From the NCBI GenBank assembly GCA_937902665.1, contig CALELM010000046.1, positions 3,740 through 67,739 of the forward strand: 64,000 nt of DNA, written 5' to 3'. This stretch comes from an uncultured Selenomonadaceae bacterium (GTDB taxonomy: Bacteria > Bacillota > Negativicutes > Selenomonadales > Selenomonadaceae). The position numbers and the translations under genes were made by a program. The notes below the pieces were generated by a model. It was not told the origin of the DNA. It saw only the letters and a list, made by a program, of their open reading frames with translations, and ran no database searches. Shown in pieces: positions 10,559 through 61,508 of the stretch. The first letter of the stretch is position 1. Every line of letters begins with the position of its first letter.

Positions 10559-10572
10559 GGAGGCCTGTCGAG

Positions 10573-36025: not shown

Positions 36026-36094
36026 AGCGGGATGCGGAGCGTTTTGGAGGGAGTTTCGTTAGGGAAAACAAGACATATCTATGGAGGGATTATT

Positions 36095-36529
36095 ATGGTA
36101 GGCAAAATCGGTGATATGGTGTCTGCGGCAGTTGTGATTGGGGCAACCGAGCGGGCAGGCAGTGCCAGCACGGAAAATACGCAGAGCATGAATGCAGAGA
36201 ATTACACAAGGGCAGAGAATGCAAATGAAGTGGATCTTCGGAAGATCGAGGAAAGCAACGAAGCAGATGCTGCCCAAGATGAAGAGCAGGACGAGGAACC
36301 CATGAGCGAGGAATCCGTCAGCCTCATGACGGATGAGCTGAATGAGCTGATGAGCCGCATCAACTGCAACCTCCACTTCAAGTATCACAAGGAGGTCAAT
36401 ATGCTTTCCGTCAAGATGATTGACAAGGGGACGGGAGAGCTGATCAAGGAAGTGCCGCCGGAGAAGATGATCAAGCACATGATCAAGGCGCAGGAGTGGC
36501 TAGGCGCATTCCTGGACAAGAAAGGGTAA
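36095..36529 (+). CDS. flaG: Flagellar protein FlaG
   Basis: C-terminal LHFKYHKEVNMLSVKMIDKGTGELIKEVPPEKM FlaG signature. ATG at 36095 follows GGAGGGA. Confidence 0.8.
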   Translation: MVGKIGDMVSAAVVIGATERAGSASTENTQSMNAENYTRAENANEVDLRKIEESNEADAAQDEEQDEEPMSEESVSLMTDELNELMSRINCNLHFKYHKEVNMLSVKMIDKGTGELIKEVPPEKMIKHMIKAQEWLGAFLDKKG

Positions 36530-38340: not shown

Positions 38341-38751
38341 ATGGTAAACGCAGCAGAAGCCTACAAGAGGCAGCAGATCATGACGGCGACGCCGGAAGCA
38401 TTGACGCTGATGCTTTACAATGGATGCCTTAAATTCATTACGGAAGGCATGGAATACGTTGAGAAAAAGGATTACGAGCAGGCAAACATCACGCTTCAAA
38501 AGGCGCAGAACATCATTTCGGAGTTCCGCGTAACGCTGAAGATGGAATATGATATTGCAAAGCAGCTGATGCCGCTTTACAACTATACCTATGATCGCTT
38601 GGTAGAGGGCAACATGAAGAGCGATCTCAAGCAGCTGCAGGAGGCATACACCATCATCAGGGAGCTTCGGGATGCATGGGTGCTTGCCATGAAGAAGGCA
38701 CGTCAGGAGCAGGGAACGAAGAACGTGCAGGGGAACAGCTATGTCGGATGA
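38341..38751 (+). CDS. fliS: Flagellin-specific chaperone FliS
   Basis: AYKRQQIMTATPEALTLMLYNGCLKF...YTIIRELRDAW signature. Confidence 0.9.
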   Translation: MVNAAEAYKRQQIMTATPEALTLMLYNGCLKFITEGMEYVEKKDYEQANITLQKAQNIISEFRVTLKMEYDIAKQLMPLYNYTYDRLVEGNMKSDLKQLQEAYTIIRELRDAWVLAMKKARQEQGTKNVQGNSYVG

Positions 38752-39088
38752 TGCAATGAAGAGGGCAAAGGAAAACTGGGAGCTTTACTATACGCTGACG
38801 AAGGAGATGCTGAAGTATATCGAGGCTGCTGATATCGAGCAGTTTCTGGAGATAGAGAGGCAGAGGGCAGTCATCGTGGAGCGGATGAAGGAGCTTCCGG
38901 AGACGGAGACCTATCGGCAGACGGAGGAATGCAGGGAACTCGTTCAAGAGATCAAGCCCATTGATATGCAGGTACTCTACAAGGCAAAGACTTGGCTCAA
39001 CAAGAGCCGCCGCCAAAATGCGACGGTACATTCCTATGATCTGCAGCACGTCAACCCTATCGGAAATATTTTAAACAGAAAATACTGA
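38741..39088 (+). CDS. FliT-like helical protein
   Basis: 115-aa helical ORF overlapping the fliS stop, in the fliD-fliS-fliT position. The call rests on synteny only. Confidence 0.45.
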   Translation: MSDDAMKRAKENWELYYTLTKEMLKYIEAADIEQFLEIERQRAVIVERMKELPETETYRQTEECRELVQEIKPIDMQVLYKAKTWLNKSRRQNATVHSYDLQHVNPIGNILNRKY

Positions 39089-39094: not shown

Positions 39095-39121
39095 TTAAGG
39101 AAAGCCGGATATCTCCGATAT
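39095..39121 (+). promoter_or_regulatory. Sigma-28 (FliA/SigD)-type promoter, upstream copy
   Basis: CGCTTAA-N15-TCCGATATATGGGTA. The -10 matches the GCCGATAT-type consensus. Confidence 0.55.
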
Positions 39122-39185
39122 ATGGGTAACAGGCGGGAGAGCTTAGGAAAAGCGAAAAGAAAAGCAAAAAAACTAAAAAAACCGC

Positions 39186-39212
39186 TTAACAAAATGGAAA
39201 ATACTCCGATAT
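39186..39212 (+). promoter_or_regulatory. Sigma-28 (FliA/SigD)-type promoter, downstream copy
   Basis: CGCTTAA-N15-TCCGATATATGGGTA, with the same spacing and the same 15-nt -10 block as the upstream copy. Confidence 0.6.
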
Positions 39213-39330
39213 ATGGGTATAAGGTTCTCAAAGGTATTCCAAAGGTAATCAGCAGGCTTCTTGGAAGTTCAGGGATGGTCAGCTAGCAGCCGGACAGGGG
39301 CGGACATCAGCTTGCTATTATAAAGTCAGT

Positions 39331-39389: not shown

Positions 39390-40718
39390 ATGGCAATGGT
39401 AGTAAAGAACAACATGGCTGCAATCAGCACGCTGAACACTTTGAACAAGAACTCCAGCGCATTGACGAAGAGCTTGGCAAAGGTATCTTCCGGCATGAAA
39501 ATCAACAATGCAGCAGATGATGCTTCCGGTTATGCAATTTCCGAGCGTATGCGCGTTCAGATCCGTTCCTTGGATCAGGCAAACCAGAACACGCAGAACG
39601 GTAACAGCATGATGAAGGTTGCAGAAGGCGCTGTTTCCAGCACGGTCGAGATTCTCAAGACCTTGAAGGAAAAGGTTATCAACGCAGCGAACGATACCAA
39701 CACGGATTCTGACCGTGCTCAGATCCAGAAGGAACTTGACCAGAGCATTGACCAGATCAATGACAATGCAAACATCACTTACAATGGCAAGTACCTTGTG
39801 GATGGTTCCCACAACAACAAGGTTACGGCTACTTGCACGGCACTCACGAACGAGAGCATGTTCTCCTCTACGGTGGGTGGTTCTGCATTGACAAGCCTGA
39901 AGAGCCGCAGCGGTGAGTCCCTCAATATCCACAGCACGGATAATGTGACGATTTCCTTCGTAAAGCAGGGCAGGACTTACACGACGACGTTCTCAATTGG
40001 TACCTGCACGTTGCAGAATGTTGTGGATGCTTCTTCAACAGGTAAGTGTGGCACGGAGACTCTTAGCACTGCAGCTCTTGTACTTACACAGACTGGTTCG
40101 CTCATTGGCAAGGATGGTTCTGGCAACTCTGTTTATACGGCAGACAATGGCCCGGCAGTGACGATTGCAGCAGCTGGCACTGGTACGAACAACCAGATTT
40201 CCGGTATCACGATCAGCATCACGAACAATCAGGGTGCAATCAACAAGTCCGCAAACGCAGCTTTGGATGCATTTGAGGAGAAGATTCGCGCACAGAACAC
40301 TTCGGATGACAATGCTATCGTCCTGCAGGTTGGCACGAAGGCAAATCAGGCAATCAAGATTGGCTTGACGGACATGCGTGCTGAGGCACTCGGTCTCAAG
40401 GGTACGGATGGTTCCACCCTCAACATCGCTACGCAGAAGAATGCAAATGCTGCTATCAACGTTCTTGACAGCGCAATCCAGAAGGCTCTTGACCAGCAGA
40501 CGACAATCGGTTCTGTAGAAAGCCGCTTGAGCTACACGAGCAGCAACTTGACGACAGCTTCTGAGAACGTTCAGGCTGCAGAGTCCACGATTCGCGATGC
40601 AGACATGGCAAAGGAAATGACGGAATACACGAAGAACAACGTTCTTCTTCAGGCAGCTCAGTCGATGCTGTCTCAGGCAAACCAGAACAGCTCCGCTGTA
40701 CTCAGCTTGCTCCAGTAA
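39390..40718 (+). CDS. fliC: Flagellin
   Basis: Canonical flagellin N-terminus (NNMAAISTLNTLNKNSSALTKSLAKVSSGMKINNAADDASGYAISERM) and C-terminus (LLQAAQSMLSQANQNSSAVLSLLQ). The central domain is Ser/Thr-rich. Confidence 0.95.
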   Translation: MAMVVKNNMAAISTLNTLNKNSSALTKSLAKVSSGMKINNAADDASGYAISERMRVQIRSLDQANQNTQNGNSMMKVAEGAVSSTVEILKTLKEKVINAANDTNTDSDRAQIQKELDQSIDQINDNANITYNGKYLVDGSHNNKVTATCTALTNESMFSSTVGGSALTSLKSRSGESLNIHSTDNVTISFVKQGRTYTTTFSIGTCTLQNVVDASSTGKCGTETLSTAALVLTQTGSLIGKDGSGNSVYTADNGPAVTIAAAGTGTNNQISGITISITNNQGAINKSANAALDAFEEKIRAQNTSDDNAIVLQVGTKANQAIKIGLTDMRAEALGLKGTDGSTLNIATQKNANAAINVLDSAIQKALDQQTTIGSVESRLSYTSSNLTTASENVQAAESTIRDADMAKEMTEYTKNNVLLQAAQSMLSQANQNSSAVLSLLQ

Positions 40719-40747: not shown

Positions 40748-40780
40748 AAACCCCTCTCCTTTGGGAGAGGGGTTTTTCTT
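40748..40780 (+). terminator. Intrinsic terminator after fliC
   Basis: AAACCCCTCTCC-TTTG-GGAGAGGGGTTT stem followed by TTTTCTT. Confidence 0.8.
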
Positions 40781-40807: not shown

Positions 40808-43800
40808 ATGAAAATTACTGCCTGCTATATTACGAAGAACGAAGAAGAGAACCTGCCAAGCTCCTTGGAATCCATACGGGAGGTGGCAGATGAAATCATC
40901 GTAGTAGATACTGGTTCGGTGGACAGGACGGTGGAGATTGCGCAATCGTATGGGGCAGCAGTGTATCGCCATCCATGGCAGGATGATTTTTCAGAGCCGA
41001 GAAATGTAGCTTTGGAACATGCGAGCGGAGAATGGATCTTGTTTTTGGATGCGGATGAATCCTTCCTGCATGTGGAGCATTTGCGTGAGGCAATGGAACG
41101 GATGATGGAGGAAAAGCCTTCGGTGGAGGTTTGGCTTGTTCCTTCTTTTCATGTGGACAAGAGAAATTTGGAGCGTGTGCAAAGCATTTCGTATGTCACG
41201 AAATTGTTTCGGAACAGGAAGGATATACGATACCATGGCCGCATCCATGAGAATATCCGAAAGGATGGCGGAGAGCTGGAGCTGGGATATGCGAGTGAAG
41301 CATTAGCCATTCGGCATACGGGATATTCTGCTTCCTTGTCCAAGGAAAAGGCATTGCGAAATTTGAGGATCTTGGAACAGGAGATAGAGCGGTACGGCAA
41401 GCTTCCGGGTTATGATTATTATTTAGCAGACTGCTACTATTCCTTGGAACGCTATGAGGAGGCACTTTCCTGCGCAAAGAGCCAAGCAATGGGAGATGTG
41501 CGAATGATTGGTCATGAGAGCCATGCGCATCACCTTGCCTTGGAGTGCATGAGAAAGCTAAAGACTCCGCTTGACGAGCAGCTGGCGTGGGTGGAGCAGG
41601 CGAAGGAGGAGTATCCCTTGCTGCCGGACTATTATGCGGAGCGTGGGATGCTCCTGAGCAGCATGGGACGGCTGGAGGAAGCAGAGAAGGAATTCTTGGA
41701 GGCATTGCTTCGCTACGAGGGAAAGGAATATCCCCCCTGCCAAGGGAGTATTTTTACGGAGCAGGTGGCGGCGAGAGCGAGTGTAAGGCTTGGTGAGATT
41801 GCTTCCCGTCTTGGAAAGAGGGAGGAAGCGAAGCAGTATTTTGCAATAGCGGGGAGGTATGATGCTTTGGATGGGGAAGTAGCTAGGAAAAGGAAGGAAT
41901 GTCTTGGCGTAGAACGGAGAGCGGACGGGATCCGGATCTCTGCTTGCTATATGGTGAAGAACGAGGCGGACAACTTAAAGCGCTCTATCGAGAGCATCAG
42001 GGAGGAAGTCGATGAGATCATCGTGGTAGATACCGGCTCGACGGATGGGACGGTGGAGATGGCGCAATCGTATGGGGCAGAGGTTTATTTTCTTCCTTGG
42101 GCGGATGATTTTTCTGCACCGAGGAATGAGGCGCTTTCCCATGCCACGGGAGACTGGATTATTTTCTTGGATGCGGATGAGTATTTTACGGAGGAAACGA
42201 AGGGGAATCTCCGCAGGGTTGTCGCATCAGAAAAAAAGGGAAATCTCTTGCTGGTTCCTGCTGAGCAATATGACAGCACGACTGGACGGCGGCAGATTGT
42301 CATCTATTCGCCGCGAATCTTGCGATGCCAGGAGGGACTGCATTATGTTGGCAGGATCCATGAGGAGATTCGCGCTTGCGGCCGCATTGTGCTGCCGGTA
42401 TGCCAGCTGGCTCCTGCGGACTTGAAATTGATCCATACTGGATATTCCAGCTCGCTGACGCAGAAGAAGGCAGAACGGAATTTGAAGATCTTGCTGCAGG
42501 AGCTGGAGGACACGGACGATGAGGAGCGGCGCAATCGGCTCTATATGTATTTGGCAGAAACCTATGCAGGATTGGACAAGAACGAACTGGCAAAGTATTA
42601 TGCGAGGAAGGACATTGCCTTGGGGCGGCAGCCTATTGTATATGCGAGCCGTTCCTATCGGATCCTGCTGCACTGCTTGGCACAGGAGAAGGATGCAGGA
42701 AAGGAACGTTTGAGGGTTTCGGAGAAAGCAACGGAGGATTTTCCGGAGGTGCCGGATTTCCATGCAGAATTGGCACAGTGCCTAGCGGATGATCTCCAGT
42801 ATGAGAAGGCGGTCAGGGAAGCGGAAAAGGCTCTTTCTTCGGTGAAGGATTACTGCTGGATCGAGCCGATGGAGATGGATGAGGAGGCTTTGCGCCTCTT
42901 GACACACAGGAAAGAAGTATGGGAAAGGATACAGGAGAGAGCAAGTCATATCAAGGTATCTGCGTGCCTTATTGTGAAGGATGGGGGAGAGGATTTCAAG
43001 CTTTGGAACAAGAATGCGGATGCCTATGCTTTTGAGAAGATCGTGGTGGACACTGGCTCAACGGATGGAACGGCAGAGCTTGCGGCTGCTTGCGGCTGCA
43101 AGGTATATCCGATGGAATGGCATGGGGACTTTGCGGCGGCGAGAAATGAGGCGCTTTTCCATGCGACAGGGGACTGGGCAGCTGTGCTTGATGCAGATGA
43201 GGAGTTCATAGAGCCGGAGAAGGTACGCCCGTACCTTGCCCGCATGGAGCTTAGTTATGGGAAAGCGGATGCTGTTATGGTGCCGATCATTCACATTGAT
43301 ACGGATGACGGGAATCGAGAGATCAAGCGAGCTCCCTATACAAGGCTTCTTCGCATGGGGAGGGGACTGCATTACCAAGGGAGAGTGCATGAGAGACTGG
43401 TAAAGCAGGTCGGTGAGGTATGCCTTTTTGCAGAAGAGGAAAAACTGGCGATTCGTCATACGGGGTATTCCTCCGGACGTATCTTAGGGAAGCTGCAGAG
43501 AAATTTGGAACTGCTGCAAAGAGAAATCGCAGAGCATGGAAAGAAGCCCCAGCATGACAGGTATTTGGCGGATTGCTATTATGGCATGGGAGATTACGCA
43601 AAGGCTTTGGAGCATGCGCAGATGGCTTTGGGAGGAGCGGTATCCCTTGGGGCGCAGAGCGATTTGTGCAGGATGCTTCTTTCCTGCATGAAGGAGTTGG
43701 AGACTCCGAAAGAGGAGCAGATTGCTGTTGCACGGCAGGCGGTGGAGAACTATCCCGATTTGCCGGATTTTTATGGCTTGCTGGGACTCTTGCTTTTGGA

Positions 43801-44773
43801 AAGCGACAGGGAGCAGGCAGTCTCCCTCTTGGAACAGGCAATCAATCTTTTTGAGAATTCAGCTTCCAGTGGGGAGGCAAGCCAGTTTGCCGATTTTGCA
43901 GATGAGGTATTTGCGGCATTGGCGGAAGTATGCCTGCCTGACCAGAAAGCATGGGAGCTTGCTAAAAAGGCACTGCACTGGAATCCAAGAAATGAGAATG
44001 CCTTGGATGTGATCTGTACCTGCAAGGAAGGGACATCGGATGGGGAACTATTGGAGCTTCTTCAGGAAATGCTGGGAAGAGACGAAAAACAAGTGAGATA
44101 CTTGGCAAGGTTTGCAGAAAGCTATGGAAGGATTGGGCTTTTGGAAGAGGCGGAGCGAGTGTTGCGTGAGGAATTCCAGCAGGATGCCTGCCTGACGGAA
44201 ACCTATCAGAGATGGAAGGAAAACGGAGAGGCTGCTTTAGGGGAATGCTTTACGTTTGCTGCAGAAAATATCAAGAAGCTGCCGCCTGTCATGGTGTGCT
44301 TGGAGCAGGAAAAAACGATGCCTGCGAGGAAGCTCTTAAAAGAAGCAGAGAAGCAGCTGCCGCCTTCGATGCAGGTGCTTTGGAGGTGCTACAGGGAAGG
44401 TGAGGTGCCGGATTCCTTCAACAGGCAGGATGGATTTGATTTTTTCATGGAGGCTTTTCTGGACTGGGGAACAGAGGAACAGCTGGAGCGGTTCCTGTCA
44501 CTGGCCGGTGCTTTGGAGGAGCAGGACGTTTGGGAGCTTGGAACAGCTCTCTTTGTGCGCAGGCGGTGGCAGGGCGTGATTGCCCTGCAGTCCATGTTCC
44601 CTGCGGATTCTCCGTTGGCAAATGAAGAATTTTGGTATCGGCTCGGCGTATGCTTTTATGAGCTTGGCGAGGAGGAAACGGCACAGGAGTGCATGGAAAA
44701 GGCGCTTTCCATGTGCGAGGATCATGCAGGAGCAATTTCCTATATGGCATGGATGAGAGGTGAGAGAGCATGA
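40808..44773 (+). CDS. Tri-modular GT2-TPR glycosyltransferase (three tandem GT2 catalytic domains, each followed by TPR-like helical repeats)
   Basis: Three reiterations of the I(S/T)ACY..KNE...EIIVVDTGS.D.TVE.A...G..V....W..DF...RN.AL.HA.G.W...LDADE block start near 40808, 41930 and 42950. Each is followed by an (I)(R/H)HTGYS..L...KA.RNL segment. Confidence 0.85.
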   Translation: MKITACYITKNEEENLPSSLESIREVADEIIVVDTGSVDRTVEIAQSYGAAVYRHPWQDDFSEPRNVALEHASGEWILFLDADESFLHVEHLREAMERMMEEKPSVEVWLVPSFHVDKRNLERVQSISYVTKLFRNRKDIRYHGRIHENIRKDGGELELGYASEALAIRHTGYSASLSKEKALRNLRILEQEIERYGKLPGYDYYLADCYYSLERYEEALSCAKSQAMGDVRMIGHESHAHHLALECMRKLKTPLDEQLAWVEQAKEEYPLLPDYYAERGMLLSSMGRLEEAEKEFLEALLRYEGKEYPPCQGSIFTEQVAARASVRLGEIASRLGKREEAKQYFAIAGRYDALDGEVARKRKECLGVERRADGIRISACYMVKNEADNLKRSIESIREEVDEIIVVDTGSTDGTVEMAQSYGAEVYFLPWADDFSAPRNEALSHATGDWIIFLDADEYFTEETKGNLRRVVASEKKGNLLLVPAEQYDSTTGRRQIVIYSPRILRCQEGLHYVGRIHEEIRACGRIVLPVCQLAPADLKLIHTGYSSSLTQKKAERNLKILLQELEDTDDEERRNRLYMYLAETYAGLDKNELAKYYARKDIALGRQPIVYASRSYRILLHCLAQEKDAGKERLRVSEKATEDFPEVPDFHAELAQCLADDLQYEKAVREAEKALSSVKDYCWIEPMEMDEEALRLLTHRKEVWERIQERASHIKVSACLIVKDGGEDFKLWNKNADAYAFEKIVVDTGSTDGTAELAAACGCKVYPMEWHGDFAAARNEALFHATGDWAAVLDADEEFIEPEKVRPYLARMELSYGKADAVMVPIIHIDTDDGNREIKRAPYTRLLRMGRGLHYQGRVHERLVKQVGEVCLFAEEEKLAIRHTGYSSGRILGKLQRNLELLQREIAEHGKKPQHDRYLADCYYGMGDYAKALEHAQMALGGAVSLGAQSDLCRMLLSCMKELETPKEEQIAVARQAVENYPDLPDFYGLLGLLLLESDREQAVSLLEQAINLFENSASSGEASQFADFADEVFAALAEVCLPDQKAWELAKKALHWNPRNENALDVICTCKEGTSDGELLELLQEMLGRDEKQVRYLARFAESYGRIGLLEEAERVLREEFQQDACLTETYQRWKENGEAALGECFTFAAENIKKLPPVMVCLEQEKTMPARKLLKEAEKQLPPSMQVLWRCYREGEVPDSFNRQDGFDFFMEAFLDWGTEEQLERFLSLAGALEEQDVWELGTALFVRRRWQGVIALQSMFPADSPLANEEFWYRLGVCFYELGEEETAQECMEKALSMCEDHAGAISYMAWMRGERA

Positions 44774-46242
44774 AGATTTCGGCAGTAACGATTGCAAGGA
44801 ATGAGGCAGAAAATCTTCCGCAATGGCTAAAGAGCGTAAAGCAATATGCCGATGAAATTATTGTCGTGGATACCGGTTCAGAGGATGCTACGGTGGAGAT
44901 TGCGAGAGAAGGCGGCGCAAGGGTGGAGTTTTTTGCATGGTGCAATGATTTTGCGGCGGCAAAGAATTTTGGCATTGAGCAGGCAAGCGGAGACTGGATT
45001 GCCTTCTTGGATGCGGATGAGTATTTTGATGATACGGATGCGCCAAAGGTGCGTTCCTTGCTGTCGACATACCACAACCAGCCGAGGGTGGTTGCGATTA
45101 CTTTGAAGCTTGTCAATATTGACAAGGACACGGGAAGGAACATGGGGACCTCCTTTCCCTGCACGAGACTGTTTCGGAACGTGCCGTGGATTCGTTACGT
45201 CGGTTCGATTCATGAGAACCTGAGAAACATAACTCCTGAGAAGGAGGCAGAAATGAAGCTCGTTTCGTGGCTTCGGATCTACCATACGGGATATTCCGCC
45301 TCGGTCATCAAGCTAAAATCAAAACGGAATTTGGACATGATTTTGGACAGGCAGAAAAGGATAGGTTTCCAGCCCTTGGACGATTATCATCTTATGGACA
45401 GCTATTATTCCCTTGCTGATTATGAGAAGGCAATCTATCATGCCAAGCGGGCGGCCGCAGATCGCTATCAGCCGCTTGGCACGGAGCAGCGTATTTATAT
45501 GGTGTGGCTGCAATGCATGATGCTGATAAACGCACCAGCAGACGAATTTGAGGAGATCTTGAGGGAGGCAAGGGAAAAATTTCCGCAGGCAGCCGCCTAT
45601 TGGTTCTTGGCAGGTTCTGCGAAGTGGAAAAGCAAGGATTATCTGGGTGCAGAGCGTGAATTCATGGAAGGGTTGCTGCTCTATGAGCGCAATGGGTGCG
45701 AGGACGATTCGGCAGAGCGGCTTTTGCCCATGACTTATGAGTATTTGGGAGAGATTTGCTATATGCAGCATCGCTTTGAGGATGCGAAGGCATTTTTGAT
45801 GGAGGGCTTGCGCTGGAAGAAGCAAAGCTCCCACATGCTATGGATGTTGCTGGGACTTTGGCAGGGCGATGCAGAGGTGGAGATAATCCAGCGGCTGAAC
45901 AAGCTTTATGACAGGACGCAGGATGCCGAGTTCCTTGTGCAGGTGCTGAGTCGGACAACACTTTATCAAGCGACCTTGTATTATGACCGCTTGGCGGGCA
46001 ATGTTCTCGGAGACGTTGGGCGATATCTGCGCTCTGGGCATGCAAATGCCGCTGTCGCAGGTCTTGTCACGGAATTGGAGCGTTCTTATGTGGCAGGACA
46101 TTCGCTGGCAGGAATTCTTCAGGGGCAAACGGCATCGCTCATGGAGTATCTTTTGCCGCCGGTTTATCGGCAGGAGGGAGAAGCTTCTTCTGCGCGCATG
46201 CGGAAGCGTTTGGAACGGATGAGAAAATATTGGATGGATTAG
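44770..46242 (+). CDS. Single-module GT2-TPR glycosyltransferase
   Basis: MKISAVTIARNEAENLPQWLKSVKQYADEIIVVDTGSEDATVEIA...GDWIAFLDADEYF...YHTGYSASV is the same module as in the 1321-aa ORF. The start overlaps the upstream stop (ATGA). Confidence 0.85.
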   Translation: MKISAVTIARNEAENLPQWLKSVKQYADEIIVVDTGSEDATVEIAREGGARVEFFAWCNDFAAAKNFGIEQASGDWIAFLDADEYFDDTDAPKVRSLLSTYHNQPRVVAITLKLVNIDKDTGRNMGTSFPCTRLFRNVPWIRYVGSIHENLRNITPEKEAEMKLVSWLRIYHTGYSASVIKLKSKRNLDMILDRQKRIGFQPLDDYHLMDSYYSLADYEKAIYHAKRAAADRYQPLGTEQRIYMVWLQCMMLINAPADEFEEILREAREKFPQAAAYWFLAGSAKWKSKDYLGAEREFMEGLLLYERNGCEDDSAERLLPMTYEYLGEICYMQHRFEDAKAFLMEGLRWKKQSSHMLWMLLGLWQGDAEVEIIQRLNKLYDRTQDAEFLVQVLSRTTLYQATLYYDRLAGNVLGDVGRYLRSGHANAAVAGLVTELERSYVAGHSLAGILQGQTASLMEYLLPPVYRQEGEASSARMRKRLERMRKYWMD

Positions 46243-46257: not shown

Positions 46258-49200
46258 ATGGAGCTACGGGACAGGATTTATCAGGCATTGGATGCAAGGC
46301 AGTTTGCCTCGGCACGGGAGGCGATTGCGGAACTGAAAGCAGAAGCACCTGCGGAGGCAGCGGGGCTTTTGGTGGCACTGGAGATTGAGGACGGCTGTTT
46401 GGATGAGGCGGCTGTTTCCTTGGAGGAGTTGCGTCAGCTGTCGCCGCAGGATATTTATACGAGGTTCTTGGAGGCAAGGCTTGCTTTTTCCCTTCATGAG
46501 TACCAAAAGGCAAGGCACATTTTGGAAGAGTTGCTGGCAGGTGATATGCCCGCCATATACTTGGAAAAGGTGCTGAACCTTTACGGTCAGTGCTGCAGGC
46601 TCTTCGGGGATTGCAGGGGGGCAGCAGAGAGCTATCGCTTGGCATCCGAGGTCGTTCCGTCACGGGAGCTGAAGGCACTGGAATACAGTGATTATCTGTT
46701 TAACCTGCACTATCTTCCGCAATCGCTTTGGGAGCAGAAACGGGAAGCCATCGGTTTTGGCAGGCTTTTTTCGGATGTCCCATGGTTTTTGCAAGGGTTT
46801 CCCGTGCGGGAGAAAAAACTTCGGATTGGGTATCTTTCGGGCGATTTTCGGAATCATGTGGTGCTTCGGTTTGTCTATGCCTTTTTTTTGCAGGTGGATA
46901 AGGAGCGGTTTGAGGTCTATGCTTATGCGAACCATTTGGAGGATGCATACAGCGAGCATCTAAAAACTCTGGTGGATGGCTGGAGAAATATCTATGGCAT
47001 TTCGGATGAGGAAGCGGCACGACTGATTTACGAGGACGAGATTGATATCCTTGTCGATTTTTCAGGGCATACGAAGGGAAACCGCCTGCCTGTTCTTGCG
47101 AGAAAGCCTGCGCCCGTGCAGATATCAGGGGTTGGTTATTTTGCTTCGACTGGGCTTCCTTCGATGGATTATTTTTTGAGCGATGCTTTTTTGGCAGAGG
47201 GAAATGCGCAGGATGGGTTTGCAGAGGAGCTTCTGGTCTTGCCGCAGAGCCATTTTTGCTATACTCCCATGCAGGAGGAAAACCTTCCGTGCATGGCACC
47301 GTTCGAGAAAAATGGATATGTTACCTTTGGAAGCTTTAATAATTTTGCGAAGGTCAATGATGAGGTTCTGCTGGTGTGGAGCAAGTTGCTTCGGGAGATG
47401 CCGACGGCAAGGCTCCTTCTCAAGGCGGATGCCTTTGCTTTTGAGGATACGAAAGCTGCGGCGTTGGAGAGATTGGTGCAGGCAGGGCTGGATATGCGTC
47501 GGGTAGAATGCCGTGCATGGTCTGAGGAATATCTTGCTGAGTACGGGGATATGGATATTGCATTGGATCCATGGCCGTATCCAGGGGGCGGAACGACCTG
47601 CGATGCGCTCTATATGGGTGTTCCCGTGGTGACGATGACGGGAGCAAGCCAAGGGGAACGCTTTGGGGCGAGCCTTTTGCAGAATCTCGGGCTTGCAGAG
47701 CTTGTAGCGAAAGATACGGCAGAGTATGCAAGTATTGCACTGGCACTGGCAGAGGATCGGGAGGCACTGTCGATGCTTCGCAAGAACCTTCGAGACATGA
47801 TGCAAAATTCGCCGTTGATGGATGTTTCGGGGTATCAGGAGAGCTTGGCAGCTGCGTATCAAATGGTGTGGCATCATTATTGCGATACGCAGGAGGAACT
47901 TACCTATGCAGAGCAGAGGATCTTGCTCTCCCGTATCGAGAAATGGCAGGAGCAGGGCGATCGGAGGCAGGCTGTCTCTGGAATGTCAAGGATCTTGGCA
48001 GGCTCCCAAAATCTGAGCCTTTTGTTTCGGCTGGCGGAGATCGCTATAGATGGCAAGGAAATTTCTATCGTGGAGGAAACTGCAAGGCAGATGGAGCAGT
48101 GCGGTCCAAGGCAGGGGGCAACGCTTCTGGTGCAGGCATATTTATGTTCCATGAAGCATGAAGCGGAGAAGGCACTGCTGTTTTCTGAAAGGGCAAGAAA
48201 TGCCGGCACGCTGGATAATGTGCAGATGGGAATGGCATGGCATTTGACGGCAAGCCTGCAAAAAGAGCAGGGAAAGAGAGCCCTTGCGGCACATTCCTAT
48301 TTGGAATCGAGCCGCTGGCAGGCAGCAAAGGAAAATGCTTTGGCAGAATACAGCAATTATCTTCTGAACCTGCATTACGGCGGTGAACGGGAGATATTCA
48401 GAACTGCGGCAGAGGGATATGGGATCTTGCTTGCAGATGTGAAGCGGTATTCTCACGACATGGCACGGCATAGGCATGCGAGACTTCGCATAGGATATAT
48501 TTCTCCTGATTTTTGCCGTCATGTGGCGGCATGCTTTGCAGGCGTGTTTTTTGCATCGGCAGATTCGCAGGTGTTTTCGGTCTATGCTTATTCGCTCTCC
48601 ATGGAGACGGATGCTGTGACGGAGGAGTTCCGTTCCCGTGCAGAGCATTTTATCGACCTTTCCGGCATGGATGCAGAGAAAGCGGCAAGGCGCATTTACG
48701 AGGATGAGATTGATATTTTGGTGGATCTTTCCGGACACACAGGAGGAAATGCGCTTCCCATTTTGGCAAGAAAGCCTGCTCCCGTGCAGGTTTCCGGCAT
48801 TGGTTATTTTGCGACTACGGGACTTTCAGCGGTGGATTATTTTCTGTCAGATGTTTCTTTGGCAGAGGCTGGCGCGCAGAGGGATTTTGTGGAACGGTTG
48901 CTGGTCCTTCCGCAGAGCCATTGGTGCTACCGCCCTGTGGCTGGGATGGAGCGTCCTGCAGGACCTGCACCGTTTCGGAAAAATGGATACATTACCTTTG
49001 GCAGCTTGAGCCATTGGGACAAGATTACGGATGAAATGCTCCTTGCGTGGGCAGAGATCTTGAACCGTGTGCAGGGGGCAAGGCTTTTCTTGAAATGCGG
49101 GGTATATTCCAATGAGGAACGGCTGCCAGAGGTTAAGAGACGCTTGCAGGAGGCAGGGATTCCACTGAAAGCCGTGACCTTGGAGGGGCGGACGGAGGAA

Positions 49201-51240
49201 TATCTTTCTGCTTATGACCGCATAGACATTGCACTCGATACTTGGCCGTATCTCGGCGGAGGAACGACCTGCGATGCCCTGTATATGGGAGTTCCCGTGG
49301 TTGCACGAAGGGATGTCACGCATCATGGCCGCTTTGCCTGCAGTATGCTGAAGCAGGCAGGGCTGGCGGAGCTTTGCGCAGATACGCTGGAAGGATATGT
49401 TCGTGAAGCCGTTCTTTTGGCAGGGAATCGGGAAAAGCTTGCAAGACTGCACCAGACGCTCCGGCGTACGTTGCGGCAGACGGCACTCATGGATGGCGAA
49501 CGGTATATGGCAGGCTTGGAAGATGCCTATCGGACGATTTGGCGCAGTTATTGCGAGGAAAACGGTTCGCCCTTGGATGAGGGGCGCTTGCAGAAGGAGT
49601 TTCTTGCAGCAAGGCAGGAAGGACATGCAGAAAAGGAGCAGCGCAGCTCTTTTTGGCTGACGAACCTTCCTGAAAGGCAGTTGGAGGCGGAACGGGTTTG
49701 TGCTTTTTCCTACTATAGAAGGAAACTGTACCGCAGGGCGTATGGTCTAGCTTCCCGTTGCGTGAGGCTGGATGCTGGCGATGAGGCTATGCTTTACGTT
49801 GCGATGGATTCCTTGGACAAGCTTGGCGAGCTTTCCAAGGTGCTGGAGGGGTGCGATACCTATTTCAGGACGCATGGTTCTCCTTATTCGGAATATGGGA
49901 AGAAACTTTTGCTCCTTCGTGCGTTTGTGGCATCGAAATTGGGCAGGGAATCGGCAGCGCAGTATTACAGGGAAGTTTATGAGAATGATCCTTCGGATAC
50001 GGATGCTTATGGATCGTGGCTCTTGGCGCACAATGGCTTTCCTGTGGACGAAGGAAGGTTTTTTGAGCTGTCCAAGGGGTTTGGCAGGCTGTTTGAGGGA
50101 ATCCAGCCCTATACGCATGAGGGGCATCCTGTGCATGAGAAGCTTCGTATCGGATATATTTCTCCGGATTTTCGGATTCATGTTATGTTTCACTTTTATA
50201 TCGCCATGTTTTTGGCGTATGATGCAGAAAAATTTGAAATCTATGGCTATCATTTGGGCGGGAAGACGGATGAGATTACGAAGCGGCTTGCAGGTCTGGC
50301 GAAGGGATGGCGCATGGTGCATGGCTGTTCCCCCAAGGAAATCGCTCAAATGATTCGGGACGATGAAATTGATATCCTGTTTGATTTGGCAGGGCATACG
50401 ATGGAGGGGGGGCTTCCTGTGCTTGCCTGCAAGCCTGCGCCTGTGCAGATTTCGGGACTTGGCTATATGGCAACAACGGGACTTCCTGCGGTCGATTATT
50501 TTCTGACGGATTCGTATGTAGATCCAGTGGGAATGACGGAAAGATACTTCACGGAGCGGTTGCTACGCCTAACGAGCCAGTTCTGCTACGCTGCTCCCTT
50601 TGGGACTGCGCTGGAAGCCTCGCAGGGAGCGCCCTGCAGGCAGCGTGGGTGGGTACTCTTTGGCGTGTTCAATGCTTATCGGAAGTATCGGGACGAAATG
50701 CTTTTGCTGTGGAAGAAGATACTGGAACGTGTTGCAGGCTCGAAAATCTTGCTGAAGTCGCAGGTGCTGTTCAGTCCTGCCATGCAGGAGGAAGCCTTTG
50801 AACGATTTGCTTCGCTTGGCTTTGATATGGATCGCGTGATTTTTGAGCCGGCAACGACCGATTACATGCAGCGTTATCTGGATGTGGATATTTCCTTGGA
50901 TACTTATCCCTATCCAGGGGGAGGAACGACCTGTGATTCCCTGTACATGGGCGTGCCAGTCATAGCCAAGTACGGGACGAGGCACAGCAGCCGCTTTACC
51001 TACAGCATTTTGGCAAATGTCGGTTTGGGGAGTCTTGCCGTGCAGACAGATGAGGAATATGTGGAAAGAGCCGTGCTGTTGGCAGAGGATAAGGAACTTT
51101 TGGATGCCTTGCATCGAAAGCTTCGCAGAATGATGGAGAAATCGAGCGTGATGGATACGGATGCCTATATGAGAGAGCTGGAGGAAGCATATCAGCGGAT
51201 TTGGAAGGAATATCAGGAAGGGACAGGGAGTCGGGTATGA
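46258..51240 (+). CDS. Tri-modular TPR-GT41 (O-GlcNAc-transferase/SPINDLY-like) glycosyltransferase
   Basis: Three ~550-aa reiterations. Each has helical repeats, then LRIGY(L/I)S.DF..HV, PAPVQ(I/V)SG.GY.A(S/T)TGL...DYFL(S/T)D, and YPGGGTTCD(A/S)LYMGVPV. The LRIGY blocks lie near 46818, 48484 and 50143. Confidence 0.85.
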   Translation: MELRDRIYQALDARQFASAREAIAELKAEAPAEAAGLLVALEIEDGCLDEAAVSLEELRQLSPQDIYTRFLEARLAFSLHEYQKARHILEELLAGDMPAIYLEKVLNLYGQCCRLFGDCRGAAESYRLASEVVPSRELKALEYSDYLFNLHYLPQSLWEQKREAIGFGRLFSDVPWFLQGFPVREKKLRIGYLSGDFRNHVVLRFVYAFFLQVDKERFEVYAYANHLEDAYSEHLKTLVDGWRNIYGISDEEAARLIYEDEIDILVDFSGHTKGNRLPVLARKPAPVQISGVGYFASTGLPSMDYFLSDAFLAEGNAQDGFAEELLVLPQSHFCYTPMQEENLPCMAPFEKNGYVTFGSFNNFAKVNDEVLLVWSKLLREMPTARLLLKADAFAFEDTKAAALERLVQAGLDMRRVECRAWSEEYLAEYGDMDIALDPWPYPGGGTTCDALYMGVPVVTMTGASQGERFGASLLQNLGLAELVAKDTAEYASIALALAEDREALSMLRKNLRDMMQNSPLMDVSGYQESLAAAYQMVWHHYCDTQEELTYAEQRILLSRIEKWQEQGDRRQAVSGMSRILAGSQNLSLLFRLAEIAIDGKEISIVEETARQMEQCGPRQGATLLVQAYLCSMKHEAEKALLFSERARNAGTLDNVQMGMAWHLTASLQKEQGKRALAAHSYLESSRWQAAKENALAEYSNYLLNLHYGGEREIFRTAAEGYGILLADVKRYSHDMARHRHARLRIGYISPDFCRHVAACFAGVFFASADSQVFSVYAYSLSMETDAVTEEFRSRAEHFIDLSGMDAEKAARRIYEDEIDILVDLSGHTGGNALPILARKPAPVQVSGIGYFATTGLSAVDYFLSDVSLAEAGAQRDFVERLLVLPQSHWCYRPVAGMERPAGPAPFRKNGYITFGSLSHWDKITDEMLLAWAEILNRVQGARLFLKCGVYSNEERLPEVKRRLQEAGIPLKAVTLEGRTEEYLSAYDRIDIALDTWPYLGGGTTCDALYMGVPVVARRDVTHHGRFACSMLKQAGLAELCADTLEGYVREAVLLAGNREKLARLHQTLRRTLRQTALMDGERYMAGLEDAYRTIWRSYCEENGSPLDEGRLQKEFLAARQEGHAEKEQRSSFWLTNLPERQLEAERVCAFSYYRRKLYRRAYGLASRCVRLDAGDEAMLYVAMDSLDKLGELSKVLEGCDTYFRTHGSPYSEYGKKLLLLRAFVASKLGRESAAQYYREVYENDPSDTDAYGSWLLAHNGFPVDEGRFFELSKGFGRLFEGIQPYTHEGHPVHEKLRIGYISPDFRIHVMFHFYIAMFLAYDAEKFEIYGYHLGGKTDEITKRLAGLAKGWRMVHGCSPKEIAQMIRDDEIDILFDLAGHTMEGGLPVLACKPAPVQISGLGYMATTGLPAVDYFLTDSYVDPVGMTERYFTERLLRLTSQFCYAAPFGTALEASQGAPCRQRGWVLFGVFNAYRKYRDEMLLLWKKILERVAGSKILLKSQVLFSPAMQEEAFERFASLGFDMDRVIFEPATTDYMQRYLDVDISLDTYPYPGGGTTCDSLYMGVPVIAKYGTRHSSRFTYSILANVGLGSLAVQTDEEYVERAVLLAEDKELLDALHRKLRRMMEKSSVMDTDAYMRELEEAYQRIWKEYQEGTGSRV

Positions 51241-53693
51241 GAAAATTGAGAATCGGCTATCTTTCGGATGGCTTTTGCCAAGGAGAGCAAAAGGATTTTT
51301 TGGCAGTGTATTTTACGGCAAAGGACAAATACTGCTTTGAGGTTTACGGGTATCAGGCAGGAAACGCAGATGCAGTTACAAAGCTGTTTGAGGAATCCGC
51401 AGATGGCTGGAACAACCTGCAGGGGAAATCCTCTTTGCAGGCGGTAAAGGAGATTCGGAAGGATAAGCTGGATTTGTTGGTGATTCTGGGAAATCCGTCC
51501 TGCACGGAGCTTATAGCGGAGCTTGCGGGGAAGAATGTGGCGGGATATATCCTGCAGGAGAAGTTTGACAGGTTCTGCTATACGCCCTTTGCCAAGGTGA
51601 GGAATTACGCCGTATATGCTCCTCTTTTGGACAGGGGCGATTTGACGATTGACTACTTGGACGGCAGGACGATGGAGGAGATCCCTTATCAGGAACTGGA
51701 TATAGGGCTTTATCGGCATACCCCCTCGCTGGCTGAGCTGTGCCATGCCATGGATAACGGGCTGCCTGTTGTGGTTTGCGATGAGGAAAAAAACGAGGGT
51801 ATCCGCTACATGATGGAGGAATTGGGGCTTGCCGGATGCTATGCGGTTACGGAGGTGGATTTTGCAAGGGCAGTGCTGAACCTGTCGGAACAACGGGAGG
51901 AAATTTGCAGGCTGCACCGAGAACTTCATGCAAGGCTTCATGCGTCAAAGCTTATGGATATCGGTCACTATATCATAGAGCAGGAAAGGAAATATTTCCA
52001 GATTGCTTATGGGGAGAAAAAGGAAAATGTGAAGAAGTTGCTTTCTGAGCTGGAGAAGCTGCAGGAAAAAAAGAATTGGAAGGAATATGTCCGCCTGCAC
52101 GGGAAATTGGTGGGAATGGAGGCTGTTCCAACGGAAAAGCTCCTGATTGGGGCATGGGCATATAATTTCTTGCAGGTTCCCATGCGAACCCTCCACTGGG
52201 CAAGGAAGGCAGAGGAGCATCATGCAGAAAAGCTTGCTACACAGCTGTATCTGCAGGCAAAGGCATTATGGGAAGAGGGACACTGGGCAGAGCTTGGCAA
52301 GGTCTGCCAAAGGATCTTGGATCTGGAAGAAGCCGGCAAGGAATTGCTCTCGGAAATCCGATTTGACGCATGGCGTTATATGGCATTTGTTTTTATTCGT
52401 TTGGGTGATGCAAGAACAACGATGGCATACCGAAAAGTCAGCGAGCTTTCGTCCAATGAAGTGGATCGGCGCGGTTTTTTCAGTGCCAGCTTGTTGTCCT
52501 ATAATTTTCAGGAGGTCTCCTTGCAGAAGCTGTATGAGGAACATGTTTCCTATAACCAGTTTTTTACGGGAATTGAGCCTTATACGAAGTGGCAGCACCA
52601 GAGCGGGGAAAAGCTGCGGATTGGCTATATTTCCCCTGATTTCCGCAATCATGTAATGAGTACCTTTTGCTGGCCCTTTTTGGCGAGCTTCAATCGTGAG
52701 AAATTTGAGGTTTATGCCTACAACATCAAGGGAAAGGATGATTATGCCAAAATTTTTTCTTCGCTCGTGACTTGCTGGCGTGATGTGAAGGGTAAGACGT
52801 GTGAGGAAATAGCACATCAGATTCATGAGGATGGCATTGACATTTTAGTAGATCTGGCAGGCCATACCTCAGATTCCGGGCTTCCTGCACTTGCATGGAA
52901 GCCTGCCCCGATTCAGGTATCGGGGCTTGGCTACATGACGACAACGGGACTTTCTGCCGTGGATTACTTTTTTACCGATAGCTTTGTGGATCCTGTGGGA
53001 CTGAATGAGGCATATTTTTCAGAACGCTTTTTGCGGCTCAAGAGCCAGTTCTGCTATAATGCGAACCTGAATCTCGCACCTTCGGAAGGAACGCCGGCAA
53101 GGGATCGGGGATGGATTCTCTTTGGTGTTTTCAATCAATATGTGAAGATTACGGATGAAATGGCTCTCGCATGGAAGGAGATTATGGAGCGTGTGCCAAG
53201 ATCGAGACTGCTCATCAAGAATGGAGCCTTTGCGGATGAGAGGGCGGTTCTGCTTGCCTATCGCAGACTGGAGGCACTGGGGATGGATATGAACCGCATT
53301 TATTTGGAGCCACCTTCCAAGGATTACATGGAGCGGTATTTGGAAGTGGATATTGCACTGGATACCTATCCGTATCCGGGGGGAGGAACGACCTGTGATG
53401 CGCTCTATATGGGAGTACCTGTGATTTCCCGTTACAGCAATCGCCACAGTGCACGGTTTACCTATGGCATGTTGTCGGTTGTCGGCTTGGAGGATTTGGC
53501 ATCGGATACAAGAGAAGGATATGTGGAAAAGGCTGTGGAGCTGGCGCATGATATGGAGCTTTTGGATGGGTTGCACAGGAATCTCAGAACGATGATGAAG
53601 GCTTCCAGACTGATGGATCCTGTGAAGTACATCGAAGATGTGGAGGAAAATTACTGCAGGATTTGGAAGGAATATCAGGAGGGAAAAGCGTGA
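51237..53693 (+). CDS. TPR-GT41-like glycosyltransferase with an N-terminal degenerate GT41-like pseudo-module
   Basis: The N-terminal ~260 aa keep LRIGYLSDGF and the overall outline but lack the PAPVQ and GGGTT blocks. The C-terminal module (LRIGYISPDFRNHV near 52611) is intact. The start overlaps the upstream stop (ATGA). Confidence 0.8.
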   Translation: MRKLRIGYLSDGFCQGEQKDFLAVYFTAKDKYCFEVYGYQAGNADAVTKLFEESADGWNNLQGKSSLQAVKEIRKDKLDLLVILGNPSCTELIAELAGKNVAGYILQEKFDRFCYTPFAKVRNYAVYAPLLDRGDLTIDYLDGRTMEEIPYQELDIGLYRHTPSLAELCHAMDNGLPVVVCDEEKNEGIRYMMEELGLAGCYAVTEVDFARAVLNLSEQREEICRLHRELHARLHASKLMDIGHYIIEQERKYFQIAYGEKKENVKKLLSELEKLQEKKNWKEYVRLHGKLVGMEAVPTEKLLIGAWAYNFLQVPMRTLHWARKAEEHHAEKLATQLYLQAKALWEEGHWAELGKVCQRILDLEEAGKELLSEIRFDAWRYMAFVFIRLGDARTTMAYRKVSELSSNEVDRRGFFSASLLSYNFQEVSLQKLYEEHVSYNQFFTGIEPYTKWQHQSGEKLRIGYISPDFRNHVMSTFCWPFLASFNREKFEVYAYNIKGKDDYAKIFSSLVTCWRDVKGKTCEEIAHQIHEDGIDILVDLAGHTSDSGLPALAWKPAPIQVSGLGYMTTTGLSAVDYFFTDSFVDPVGLNEAYFSERFLRLKSQFCYNANLNLAPSEGTPARDRGWILFGVFNQYVKITDEMALAWKEIMERVPRSRLLIKNGAFADERAVLLAYRRLEALGMDMNRIYLEPPSKDYMERYLEVDIALDTYPYPGGGTTCDALYMGVPVISRYSNRHSARFTYGMLSVVGLEDLASDTREGYVEKAVELAHDMELLDGLHRNLRTMMKASRLMDPVKYIEDVEENYCRIWKEYQEGKA

Positions 53694-55150
53694 TGGGGGA
53701 TTTTGAGCGTTCCTACGACAAGATGAAAAAGGCGTATGACAAGAAAAAATATGAGAAAGCACTGCAACTTTTGTCGAGAATGTGGGAGGAGAATGGGATT
53801 CCTGCGCAAAAGGAATGGATGTGCCATAATGCGGCAGGGCTGTCGTACTTTTTTCTGGGAGATATGAAGCGTTCCCTGCCGCACCTGAAGGCGGCGTGGG
53901 AAAATCCGGGAGATGCGGATCCTGCCACCTTGCGAAGAATCTACAGCAATTATTTGATGTACCTGCACTACCTTCCTGCGGTGACGGATGAGGAATTGGC
54001 GAAGGCACATTTTCACTATGCGGACTTCTTTTCGGATGTGACGAGATACATGCACAGGAAAAGGGAAAAGGAGAAGCTGAGGATAGGCTATATTTCTCCT
54101 GATATCGTGGATCATGTCGTGCTGAATTTTTCTATTCAGCTGTTTGCTTGCTATGATCGCAAACGCTATGAGGTGATTCTCTACAGCACAGGGAAGCGGA
54201 CGAATGAGGTGACGGACTGGGTCGCTTCCATGGTGAATGGCTTTCGTGATTTGTCGGGACTCCCTGCGGAGGATGTGGCAAAGAGGATCTACGAGGACGA
54301 GGTGGATATTCTCGTGGATTTGTCGGGACATTGCGAGGGTGGTTTTACGCTGGAGGCAGCTGCTTACAAGCCTGCGCCTGTGCAGATTTGCGGGATTGGG
54401 TATTTTGATACGACAGGACTTTCCGACTTTGATTACTTTTTGTCAGATGTTTATTGCGATCCTGCGGAAAATGACAGGCTCTTTTCCGAGAAGCTGCTTC
54501 GTTTGCCGCACAGTCACCTTTGCTTTACGCCATCGGAGCGTTTTCGGGATTTTGAGCGGAGCTATCAGGTTCACGATCCCATTGTGTTTGGCAGTTTCAA
54601 TAATTTTGCAAAAATTACGGATGAAATGCTTTTGGCATGGAAGGAAATTCTTGGGAGGGTTTCAGGGAGCAGGCTTCTTCTGAAGAACGTCATTCCCAGC
54701 AAAGGACCAATGGAGAGAATGAAAAAGCGAGCTATTTCTTTAGGCTTTCAAGAGTGCCAGCTGGATCTCAGGCCAGCGACACCGGATTACTTGAAGGATT
54801 ATATGGATGTGGATATCGTGTTGGATACCCACCCTTACCCGGGGGGCGGAACGACCTGTGAGGCTCTTTATATGGGAGTTCCTGTCGTTAACCTGCGCGG
54901 GACGAGGCACGGCGCAAGATTTGGGTATTCCCTGCTAAAAAATATGGGGCTTGAGGAGCTTTCGGCGTCCTCAATTGCGGAATATATTGATCTGGCCGTG
55001 GGACTTGCAGAAGATAAGGAGACTCTTGAGGCATTGCATGCGAGCCTTCGGGAAATGATGAAAAAATCTCCCGTGATGAATGCAAGGCAGTATGCTTGCG
55101 AGGTGGAGCAGGCGTATGAAATGGCATGGCAGGAATGGATGAAAAGCTAG
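53693..55150 (+). CDS. Single-module TPR-GT41-like glycosyltransferase
   Basis: LRIGYISPDIVDHV, PAPVQICGIGYFDTTGLSDFDYFLSD, HPYPGGGTTCEALYMGVPVV. The start overlaps the upstream stop (TGATG). Confidence 0.85.
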   Translation: MGDFERSYDKMKKAYDKKKYEKALQLLSRMWEENGIPAQKEWMCHNAAGLSYFFLGDMKRSLPHLKAAWENPGDADPATLRRIYSNYLMYLHYLPAVTDEELAKAHFHYADFFSDVTRYMHRKREKEKLRIGYISPDIVDHVVLNFSIQLFACYDRKRYEVILYSTGKRTNEVTDWVASMVNGFRDLSGLPAEDVAKRIYEDEVDILVDLSGHCEGGFTLEAAAYKPAPVQICGIGYFDTTGLSDFDYFLSDVYCDPAENDRLFSEKLLRLPHSHLCFTPSERFRDFERSYQVHDPIVFGSFNNFAKITDEMLLAWKEILGRVSGSRLLLKNVIPSKGPMERMKKRAISLGFQECQLDLRPATPDYLKDYMDVDIVLDTHPYPGGGTTCEALYMGVPVVNLRGTRHGARFGYSLLKNMGLEELSASSIAEYIDLAVGLAEDKETLEALHASLREMMKKSPVMNARQYACEVEQAYEMAWQEWMKS

Positions 55151-61489: not shown

Positions 61490-61508
61490 AGCTGTGGGGA
61501 GTGAGAGA

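Follow-up and report, generated by a model that had tools for sequence, protein, structure and literature searches.

Why would a single reading frame right behind a flagellin gene encode three glycosyltransferases (GTs) in a row, with a fourth beside it? The question is posed by a stretch of 64,000 nucleotides (nt) from an uncultured Selenomonadaceae bacterium (GenBank assembly GCA_937902665.1, contig CALELM010000046.1, positions 3,740 to 67,739 of the forward strand), referred to here as the window. In it, an open reading frame (ORF) of 1321 amino acids (aa) contains three modules, M1, M2, and M3, each composed of a family 2 GT (GT2) domain and tetratricopeptide repeat (TPR)-like helices, and an overlapping ORF of 490 aa contains a fourth, M4. 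We consider the 1321-aa ORF to encode a multicatalytic cytoplasmic flagellin O-glycosyltransferase that works with M4 and with family 41 GT (GT41) enzymes, and we put the probability of this reading at about 0.7. The locus is a widespread, lineage-typical form of flagellin glycosylation island with GT2 and TPR enzymes, extending the known picture without changing it.

Architecture and relatives of the four modules

The two ORFs exist as described in an initial annotation of the sequence and share a 4-nt ATGA overlap, which translationally couples M4 to the three-module gene. Pfam family PF00535 (Glycos_transf_2) matches three separate stretches of the 1321-aa ORF (E 6e-66) and one of the 490-aa ORF (E 2.6e-21), so that all four modules fit a GT2 profile. 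A hidden Markov model (HMM) built from the four GT2-TPR modules covers residues 1-298, 373-674, and 713-1010 of the 1321-aa protein and residues 1-300 of the 490-aa one, which agrees with the module starts first placed near codons 1, 375, and 715. The DxD motif that had been reported for every module is present as DAD in all four, at residue 81 of both proteins and also at residues 455 and 795 of the longer one. Behind the catalytic domains, Pfam detects TPRs only weakly in the 1321-aa ORF, apart from one strong TPR_2 match at residues 1274-1306.

In pairwise comparison, identity among the four modules is 31-42% across about 280-390 aa (E 1e-45 to 1e-68), and at the DNA level they share only short conserved patches of about 70% identity. 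With so little identity, the modules are old paralogs forming a real repeat and not an assembly duplication. The initial annotation had itself raised the concern that the long ORF might be an assembly artefact; three genes would then have been wrongly joined by assembly or annotation. The exact 1321-aa protein and 1323-aa variants of it recur, with the ORF intact, in a number of independent assemblies from NCBI, ENA, and Logan, and full-length orthologs are found in isolate genomes. Together with the module identities, this refutes an artefact and rules out a recent duplication.

When the modules were compared one at a time with solved structures (phmmer against PDB), the glycosyltransferase domain of Listeria monocytogenes GmaR, a flagellin beta-O-GlcNAc transferase and MogR anti-repressor, was the best match for all four (M1, 3.3e-32; M2, 2.1e-33; M3, 1e-18; M4, 3.4e-27), followed by the glycocin S-glycosyltransferases SunS and ThuS (E about 1e-20). 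The TPR-containing GmaR chain 7x9r (GmaR 141-637) was matched by the helical parts of M1 (E 5e-6) and M2 (E 2.9e-5); M3 and M4 gave no match to it at E<0.01 in the same comparison. These matches cover only chain residues 8-175 of 7x9r, which we read as its TPR part, and we detected nothing resembling the linker or anti-repressor domains of GmaR, a homolog of MogR itself not having been searched for. Thus, a GmaR-type role as MogR anti-repressor was rejected.

An AlphaFold model of residues 1-1200 of the 1321-aa protein, computed from an alignment of 69 ortholog sequences, is confident (mean predicted local distance difference test score 89.6; predicted template modeling score [pTM] 0.65) and consists of three beta/alpha GT-A domains, each followed by helical hairpins. 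DSSP assigns helices to residues 175-366, 548-714, and 889-1197 of this model, bearing out the claim that TPR-like helices follow each GT block, as do the matches of M1 and M2 to 7x9r. In a Foldseek search of PDB, SunS and ThuS ranked at the top (E 8.5e-16 to 1e-14, target template modeling score [TM] 0.57-0.71), with TPR scaffolds, OGT and SPINDLY (SPY), and the two-GT-A polymerases K4CP and PmHS2 at lower ranks. The top NCBIfam match is TIGR04195, the SunS family, with 206 bits summed over the three modules of the 1321-aa ORF and 67.8 bits for M4; its equivalog cut-off is 350 bits, and assignment to the SunS-family peptide S-glycosyltransferases was rejected. Judged by their sequences, the modules are members of the broad GmaR/SunS-type class of protein glycosyltransferases with a GT-A domain and TPRs. 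Because the TIGR04195 scores lie below the cut-off and GmaR linker or anti-repressor likeness was not found, they represent neither a regulatory GmaR ortholog nor a glycocin enzyme. The comparison with GmaR made in the initial annotation thus holds for the architecture, with SunS and ThuS as the best fold matches.

All four window modules have intact DAD-E (LDADE), GxIHE, HxGY, and KxxRN motifs, and across 123 orthologs the motif residues are 85-100% conserved at each of the three positions. The conserved set comprises T35, W57, D60, F61, R65, N66, D81, D83, E84, R132, Y142, G144, H147, E148, H170, G172, Y173, K181, R184, and N185. Relative to L085, an independent assembly of the same lineage, the ratio of nonsynonymous to synonymous substitution rates (dN/dS) was 0.11-0.29 for every GT and helical segment of the three-module protein and 0.036 for M4. 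Given the intact, conserved motifs and the low dN/dS, all four modules look like working enzymes under purifying selection.

It is conceivable that some modules are nonenzymatic and serve as scaffolds or regulators, similarly to the moonlighting GmaR, with the C-terminal helical extension of M3 as a regulatory part. GmaR is bifunctional (PMC9638930), the helical tail of M3 comprises about 430 residues, and the nucleotide loop of M1 is altered in most orthologs. The catalytic motifs are, however, intact in the four window modules and conserved across the 123 orthologs, dN/dS stays below 0.3 in all GT domains, and the likeness to 7x9r is confined to residues 8-175 of that chain and to M1 and M2. 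We therefore regard noncatalytic modules as very unlikely.

Fused and split forms

Among about 5.8 billion proteins searched, more than 100 clusters (90% identity) of about 1305-1330 aa can be aligned with the entire 1321-aa protein, at about 40% identity; those with a named source come from Selenomonas, Mitsuokella, and Schwartzia. A scan of 130 sequences, comprising the search matches of this length, cluster members, and the two ORFs of the window, found three modules in 123. The layout of the genes was surveyed in one genome per GTDB species by ORF calling and counting of module HMM matches. A triple fusion with a single copy beside it (3+1), as in the window, was found in Selenomonas sp. 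F0473, S. infelix ATCC 43532, Centipeda periodontii DSM 2778, Mitsuokella sp. oral taxon 131, and Schwartzia. In S. sputigena ATCC 33150 (locus L010), an S. ruminantium metagenome-assembled genome (MAG), Anaerovibrio, and Selenomonas sp. ND2010 the layout is 2+1, in one MAG it is 1+2+2, and two loci (L019 and L032) have five separate single-module genes. The survey of fused versus split forms suggested in the initial annotation therefore yielded 3+1, 2+1, 1+2+2, and fully split arrangements. The same annotation had called a fused triple beside a stand-alone copy unusual. This did not hold: with three modules in 123 of the 130 scanned sequences and a 3+1 layout in several isolate genomes, a triple fusion of about 1310 aa together with a 490-aa copy is a standard arrangement in many Selenomonadaceae.

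In neighbor-joining (NJ) trees, the modules cluster by their position in the protein, all M1, all M2, and all M3 together; modules of the same position are 55-60% identical, those of different positions about 33%. By this grouping, the two-module proteins are M2+M3, and it is M1 that is missing in S. sputigena ATCC 33150. A larger NJ tree contains four Selenomonadaceae clades, M1 to M4, irrespective of fusion or splitting, and these are separate from a triad of single-module proteins of Paenibacillus, Thalassobacillus, Desulfotomaculum, and Sporomusa. Grouping by position implies that the triplication predates the Selenomonadaceae.

The triad itself, present in L056, L050, L062, and L080 of the four genera, respectively, consists of single-module GT2-TPR genes for proteins of 500-800 aa. 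Since its genes 1, 2, and 3 each group across genera in the NJ tree, a set of three paralogs seems to be ancient and widespread.

Independent fusions of several modules are present in deltaproteobacteria and in two other MAGs, one from Oscillatoriaceae and one from the rumen. The Oscillatoriaceae protein (L026, 9939-13028) has three GT2-TPR modules and two deltaproteobacterial MAG proteins (L067, 10019-12826, and L078, 9986-12790) have two, in each case with the modules as mutually closest relatives.

With M1 alone as query, exhaustive HMMER scanning of 1.84 billion representatives returned 34,675 related clusters (1,893 at E<=1e-30). The ranking favors multimodule proteins, and among 142 newly listed top proteins there were 104 with two modules, 24 with three, and 2 with four. 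Two- to four-module proteins account for at least 130 further clusters at 50% identity.

GT2-TPR modules are also found joined to GT41 modules in one chain. A protein of 2135 aa (L015, 9953-16360) combines three GT2 with two GT41 modules, and proteins of about 1450 aa combine one GT2-TPR with two GT41 modules (L011, 12647-16960; L017, 10843-15201; L024, 9998-14389; L025, 180-4562; L030, 9947-14395). Such Rosetta-stone fusions, along with the variable fused and split states of the GT2-TPR modules, argue for joint action of the modules in one pathway or complex.

Linkage to flagellin and proposed mode of action

The gene for the 1321-aa protein starts 89 nt behind the stop codon of the flagellin gene, and 26% of the residues in the central region of this flagellin (residues 146-355) are Ser or Thr (54 of 210). 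Upstream, the window has the order flgK, flgL, DUF6470, an ORF that is FlaG in relatives (36032-36529), fliD, fliS, an ORF that is FliT in relatives (38741-39088), flagellin, and the GT genes. This order, from flgK and flgL through fliD-fliS-fliT-flagellin into the GT genes, is common to L001, L003, and L085, and it is kept in Selenomonas sp. F0473 and other assemblies, where flagellin leads via a GT2-TPR gene of three or two modules and a single GT2-TPR gene to GT41. The initial annotation had placed the modules directly after flagellin, and 3+1 or 2+1 sets follow flagellin in relatives, too. For 42 of 84 loci, distant phyla included, flagellin is present in the flanking sequence that was fetched. 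With its GTs contiguous with flagellin and late flagellar genes in a conserved order, the locus is a flagellin glycosylation island.

Two copies of CTCCGATATATGGGTA upstream of flagellin (39107-39125 and 39203-39220) resemble the -10 element of sigma-28/SigD promoters (GCCGATAA), which suggests tandem late-flagellar promoters. Between the terminator-like hairpin that follows flagellin and the 1321-aa ORF we noted no obvious (sigma-70-like) promoter. With a hairpin and no promoter behind it, expression of the GT genes probably relies on read-through. The GT block of about 22 kb may depend on such partial read-through, resulting in a low ratio of enzyme to flagellin.

The enzymes could instead modify other surface proteins or, like SunS, a peptide of the glycocin type, an option that has to be weighed against this genomic context. 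By structure, SunS and ThuS match most closely and TIGR04195 is the top NCBIfam match, but 206 bits from three modules together are far under 350, the place right after flagellin is conserved in the family, flagellin is within the flanks of half of the loci (42/84), and the GT gene sits within a block of late flagellar genes. We consider another substrate highly improbable; the genomic linkage points to flagellin as the presumed acceptor of a multicatalytic O-glycosyltransferase.

On this basis, three ancient tandem GmaR/SunS-type paralogs with GT2 (GT-A) and TPR parts would have been fused into one reading frame. Their product would be a soluble cytoplasmic enzyme with three catalytic centers, acting together with the coupled 490-aa paralog and the SPY/OGT-like GT41 enzymes. 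Each module would be an independently active inverting GT-A enzyme, with DxD, HE, and H motifs and a helical arm of its own. By analogy with FlmG, Maf-1, and OGT, the arm may hold the flagellin acceptor. The modules were already distinct before the Selenomonadaceae diversified and have stayed so; a separate donor sugar and/or acceptor, the latter either a Ser/Thr site or a growing glycan, is therefore most likely for each. Architecture, intact motifs, fold, purifying selection, positional orthology, and synteny are established by the analysis, while flagellin as substrate, the donors, the role of the arms, and a division of labor in series or in parallel are what we infer from them. The covalent fusion appears to be optional, since relatives carry the same modules split, and it probably fixes stoichiometry and proximity and does not provide new chemistry.

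Several known systems share parts of this design. GmaR O-GlcNAcylates flagellin, and its TPR domain was proposed to recognize it (PMC9638930). In having an N-terminal GT2/GT-A domain followed by TPR helices and flagellin as substrate, and as the best PDB match of all four modules, GmaR is similar to the window proteins; it differs in having one catalytic domain adding a single GlcNAc, in contrast to three in one chain plus a fourth. SunS and ThuS (7msn, 7msk) show the same unusual combination of a GT-A and a helical domain and form dimers with an extended peptide cavity (PMC10373908), but these single-module homodimers modify Cys of small secreted peptides and have another genomic context. FlmG of Caulobacter and Maf-1 exhibit a similar modular logic, in which flagellin is bound by the TPR domain and the choice of donor lies with the catalytic domain, as described for FlmG (10.1101/2022.03.25.485807), and the TPRs of Maf-1 confer site specificity (PMC13317340). 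They differ in their GT-B or Maf folds, their nonulosonic acid donors, and their single catalytic domain, and the TPR domain of FlmG is N-terminal. Several GT-A domains per chain using different sugars are also present in K4CP of E. coli and PmHS2 of Pasteurella, weak Foldseek matches with low TM-scores; these are polysaccharide polymerases lacking TPR arms and not protein-directed.

In Clostridioides difficile, tandem PF00535 genes likewise follow fliC directly, as FgtA/CD0240 in type A and as GT1-GT2-GT3 (CDR20291_0241-0243) in type B. Here the GTs are separate polypeptides, and the likeness rests on PF00535 and gene position. The three enzymes of ribotype RT027 act sequentially, adding GlcNAc, then two rhamnoses, and then a terminal sugar (PMC5207246). 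In Pseudomonas aeruginosa PA1091, the GT2 enzyme FgtA is fused to the enzyme of the next pathway step, which C. difficile keeps separate (PMC11833859). Consecutive flagellin-glycan enzymes are thus joined in one polypeptide in one lineage and split in another, a precedent for the loci studied here, except that PA1091 joins unlike enzymes (FgtA and a CD0244-like phosphotransferase) and not paralogous GTs. In a search of the Pseudomonas Fgt1/FgtA literature for multi-GT architectures, only this fusion of GT2 and phosphotransferase was found.

By these analogies a sequential model stays plausible, and in its strict form, the strongest reading of the assembly line suggested in the initial annotation, M1 to M4 and then the GT41 enzymes would work as an assembly line in fixed order on one glycan, handing intermediates between linked sites. 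This is in keeping with the sequential action of the C. difficile enzymes and the joining of consecutive steps in PA1091, with the recurrent independent fusion of neighboring modules in several lineages, and with a pTM of 0.65, which suggests a partly defined geometry between the modules. The close relatives characterized biochemically (GmaR, SunS, and ThuS), however, all attach sugars to a polypeptide itself rather than to a glycan (PMC9638930, PMC10373908), fully split relatives (L019 and L032) demonstrate that covalent hand-over is not required, and missing modules such as M1 in S. sputigena ATCC 33150 fit independent decorations better than an obligatory chain. A strict assembly line is therefore doubtful, and at least partly independent action of the modules is favored, given that their relatives act on polypeptides, split forms exist, and whole modules can be absent.

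One might further speculate that the GT2-TPR modules, M4, and the GT41 modules form one megacomplex for processive decoration of unfolded flagellin prior to export, which we consider unlikely. Such a complex could resemble a nonribosomal peptide synthetase as a template-free line for a glycan code, in which each module specifies sugar and position and which is rewired by fusing, splitting, or losing modules; this extension, too, strikes us as improbable.

A multicatalytic flagellin O-glycosyltransferase remains the preferred reading, and a number of observations weigh against it. In 78 of the 123 orthologs, the nucleotide loop of M1 reads STAG (VVSTAG) in place of DTGS. VVDTGSxD is kept by M2, M3, and M1 of the window (residues 34-40, window 40907-40927), so the function of M1 may have changed in many species, with the window copy keeping DTGS; in many oral Selenomonas, the STAG loop may mean that the donor is a different one or that activity has been lost. 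The only glycoproteomic data in the family come from S. sputigena; strain ATCC 33150 of this species has 2+1 modules and not 3+1, and it may differ from the strain used for glycoproteomics. The module trees are NJ trees without support values. Among the window ORFs scanned with Pfam, a subset of all ORFs, there were no genes for nucleotide-sugar biosynthesis. Finally, a terminator-like hairpin splits flagellin from the GT genes, so that their co-expression is presumed.

Downstream genes and remainder of the window

The proposed partners of the GT2-TPR modules are encoded immediately downstream (Table 1). Three GT41 genes (46258-55150), which like the rest of the glycosylation block of about 22 kb had gone unmentioned in the initial annotation, form a translationally coupled set with five GT41 modules. 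PF13844 matches their products at 2.2e-125, 3.2e-45, and 1.3e-42, in the 1660-aa protein in six stretches; the modules of this protein are also seen by internal similarity, and in the GT41 proteins Pfam matched TPR_19 only at its N terminus. The top PDB relative of the GT41 modules is SPINDLY, followed by bacterial and human OGT. SPINDLY is a plant protein O-fucosyltransferase. The genes of the block are tightly packed, with intergenic gaps of -8 to 108 nt.

Table 1. Positions in the window of flagellin, the GT2-TPR genes and their parts, and the downstream glycosylation block
Feature	Position	Strand	Remarks
Flagellin, 442 aa, presumed acceptor	39390..40718	+	Pfam Flagellin_N 7.9e-36, Flagellin_C 5.5e-23
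Terminator-like hairpin and T-run	40756..40780	+	Hairpin 40756-40772; between flagellin and GT gene
Three-module GT2-TPR polypeptide (M1-M2-M3)	40808..44773	+	1321 aa, ATG start
M1 GT-A catalytic domain, residues 1-175	40808..41332	+	DAD at 41048-41056
M1 TPR-like helical arm, residues 176-372	41333..41923	+	Model helices; GmaR TPR match
M2 GT-A catalytic domain, residues 373-547	41924..42448	+	DAD at 42170-42178
M2 TPR-like helical arm, residues 548-712	42449..42943	+	Model helices; GmaR TPR match
M3 GT-A catalytic domain, residues 713-888	42944..43471	+	DAD at 43190-43198
M3 long helical/TPR extension, residues 889-1321	43472..44770	+	One canonical TPR at residues 1274-1306
M4, stand-alone GT2-TPR protein	44770..46242	+	490 aa, ATG start; DAD at 45010-45018
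1660-aa protein, three fused TPR+GT41 (SPY/OGT-like) modules	46258..51240	+	Modules at residues 116-541, 698-1100, 1236-1655
818-aa GT41 protein, degenerate N-terminal remnant and one full module	51237..53693	+	ATGA-coupled start
485-aa single GT41 module	53693..55150	+	Best PDB relative SPINDLY (1e-69)
TPR protein	55243-56163	+	
TPR protein	56192-57466	+	TPR matches only
416-aa weak FtsJ-like methyltransferase	57575-58825	+	E 1.4e-4, below cut-off; candidate sugar methyltransferase
TPR protein	58873-60075	+	TPR matches only
GT2	60068-61489	+	
GT8 (family 8 GT)	61494-62735	+	

In total, the GT2-TPR and GT41 genes amount to nine protein-directed GT modules in five polypeptides. Glycans on flagellin influence filament assembly, motility, adhesion, and recognition by TLR5 or lectins. 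Selenomonas species are oral and gut pathobionts, and unusually heavy and heterogeneous O-glycosylation has been reported for their flagellin. With its nine modules, the locus offers a genetic explanation for this heavy glycosylation. Passages of 10.1101/2024.05.20.594992 and PMC13339959 put the S. sputigena flagellin at 22 distinct glycopeptides with heterogeneous rhamnose-containing O-glycans. What makes the locus valuable is how densely it is packed with protein-directed GT modules, together with a natural series of fused and split forms; as the same orthologous modules are fused, split, or lost among genomes, they constitute a natural experiment on how site and sugar specificity are divided. 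Soluble cytoplasmic modules of GT-A domain and TPRs are, moreover, attractive as parts for glyco-engineering.

Elsewhere, the window encodes a hexokinase (3569-4903), a response-regulator protein with GGDEF and EAL domains (5683-7500), sucCD (9359-11478), mreB (13678-14817), flgF/flgG-like rod genes (14845-16551), flgI (17930-19042), a protein with an NAGPA domain (19642-21108), a murA-like EPSP_synthase (23410-24675), a sigma-54 activator (24984-26957), and an FtsW/RodA protein (27653-28816).

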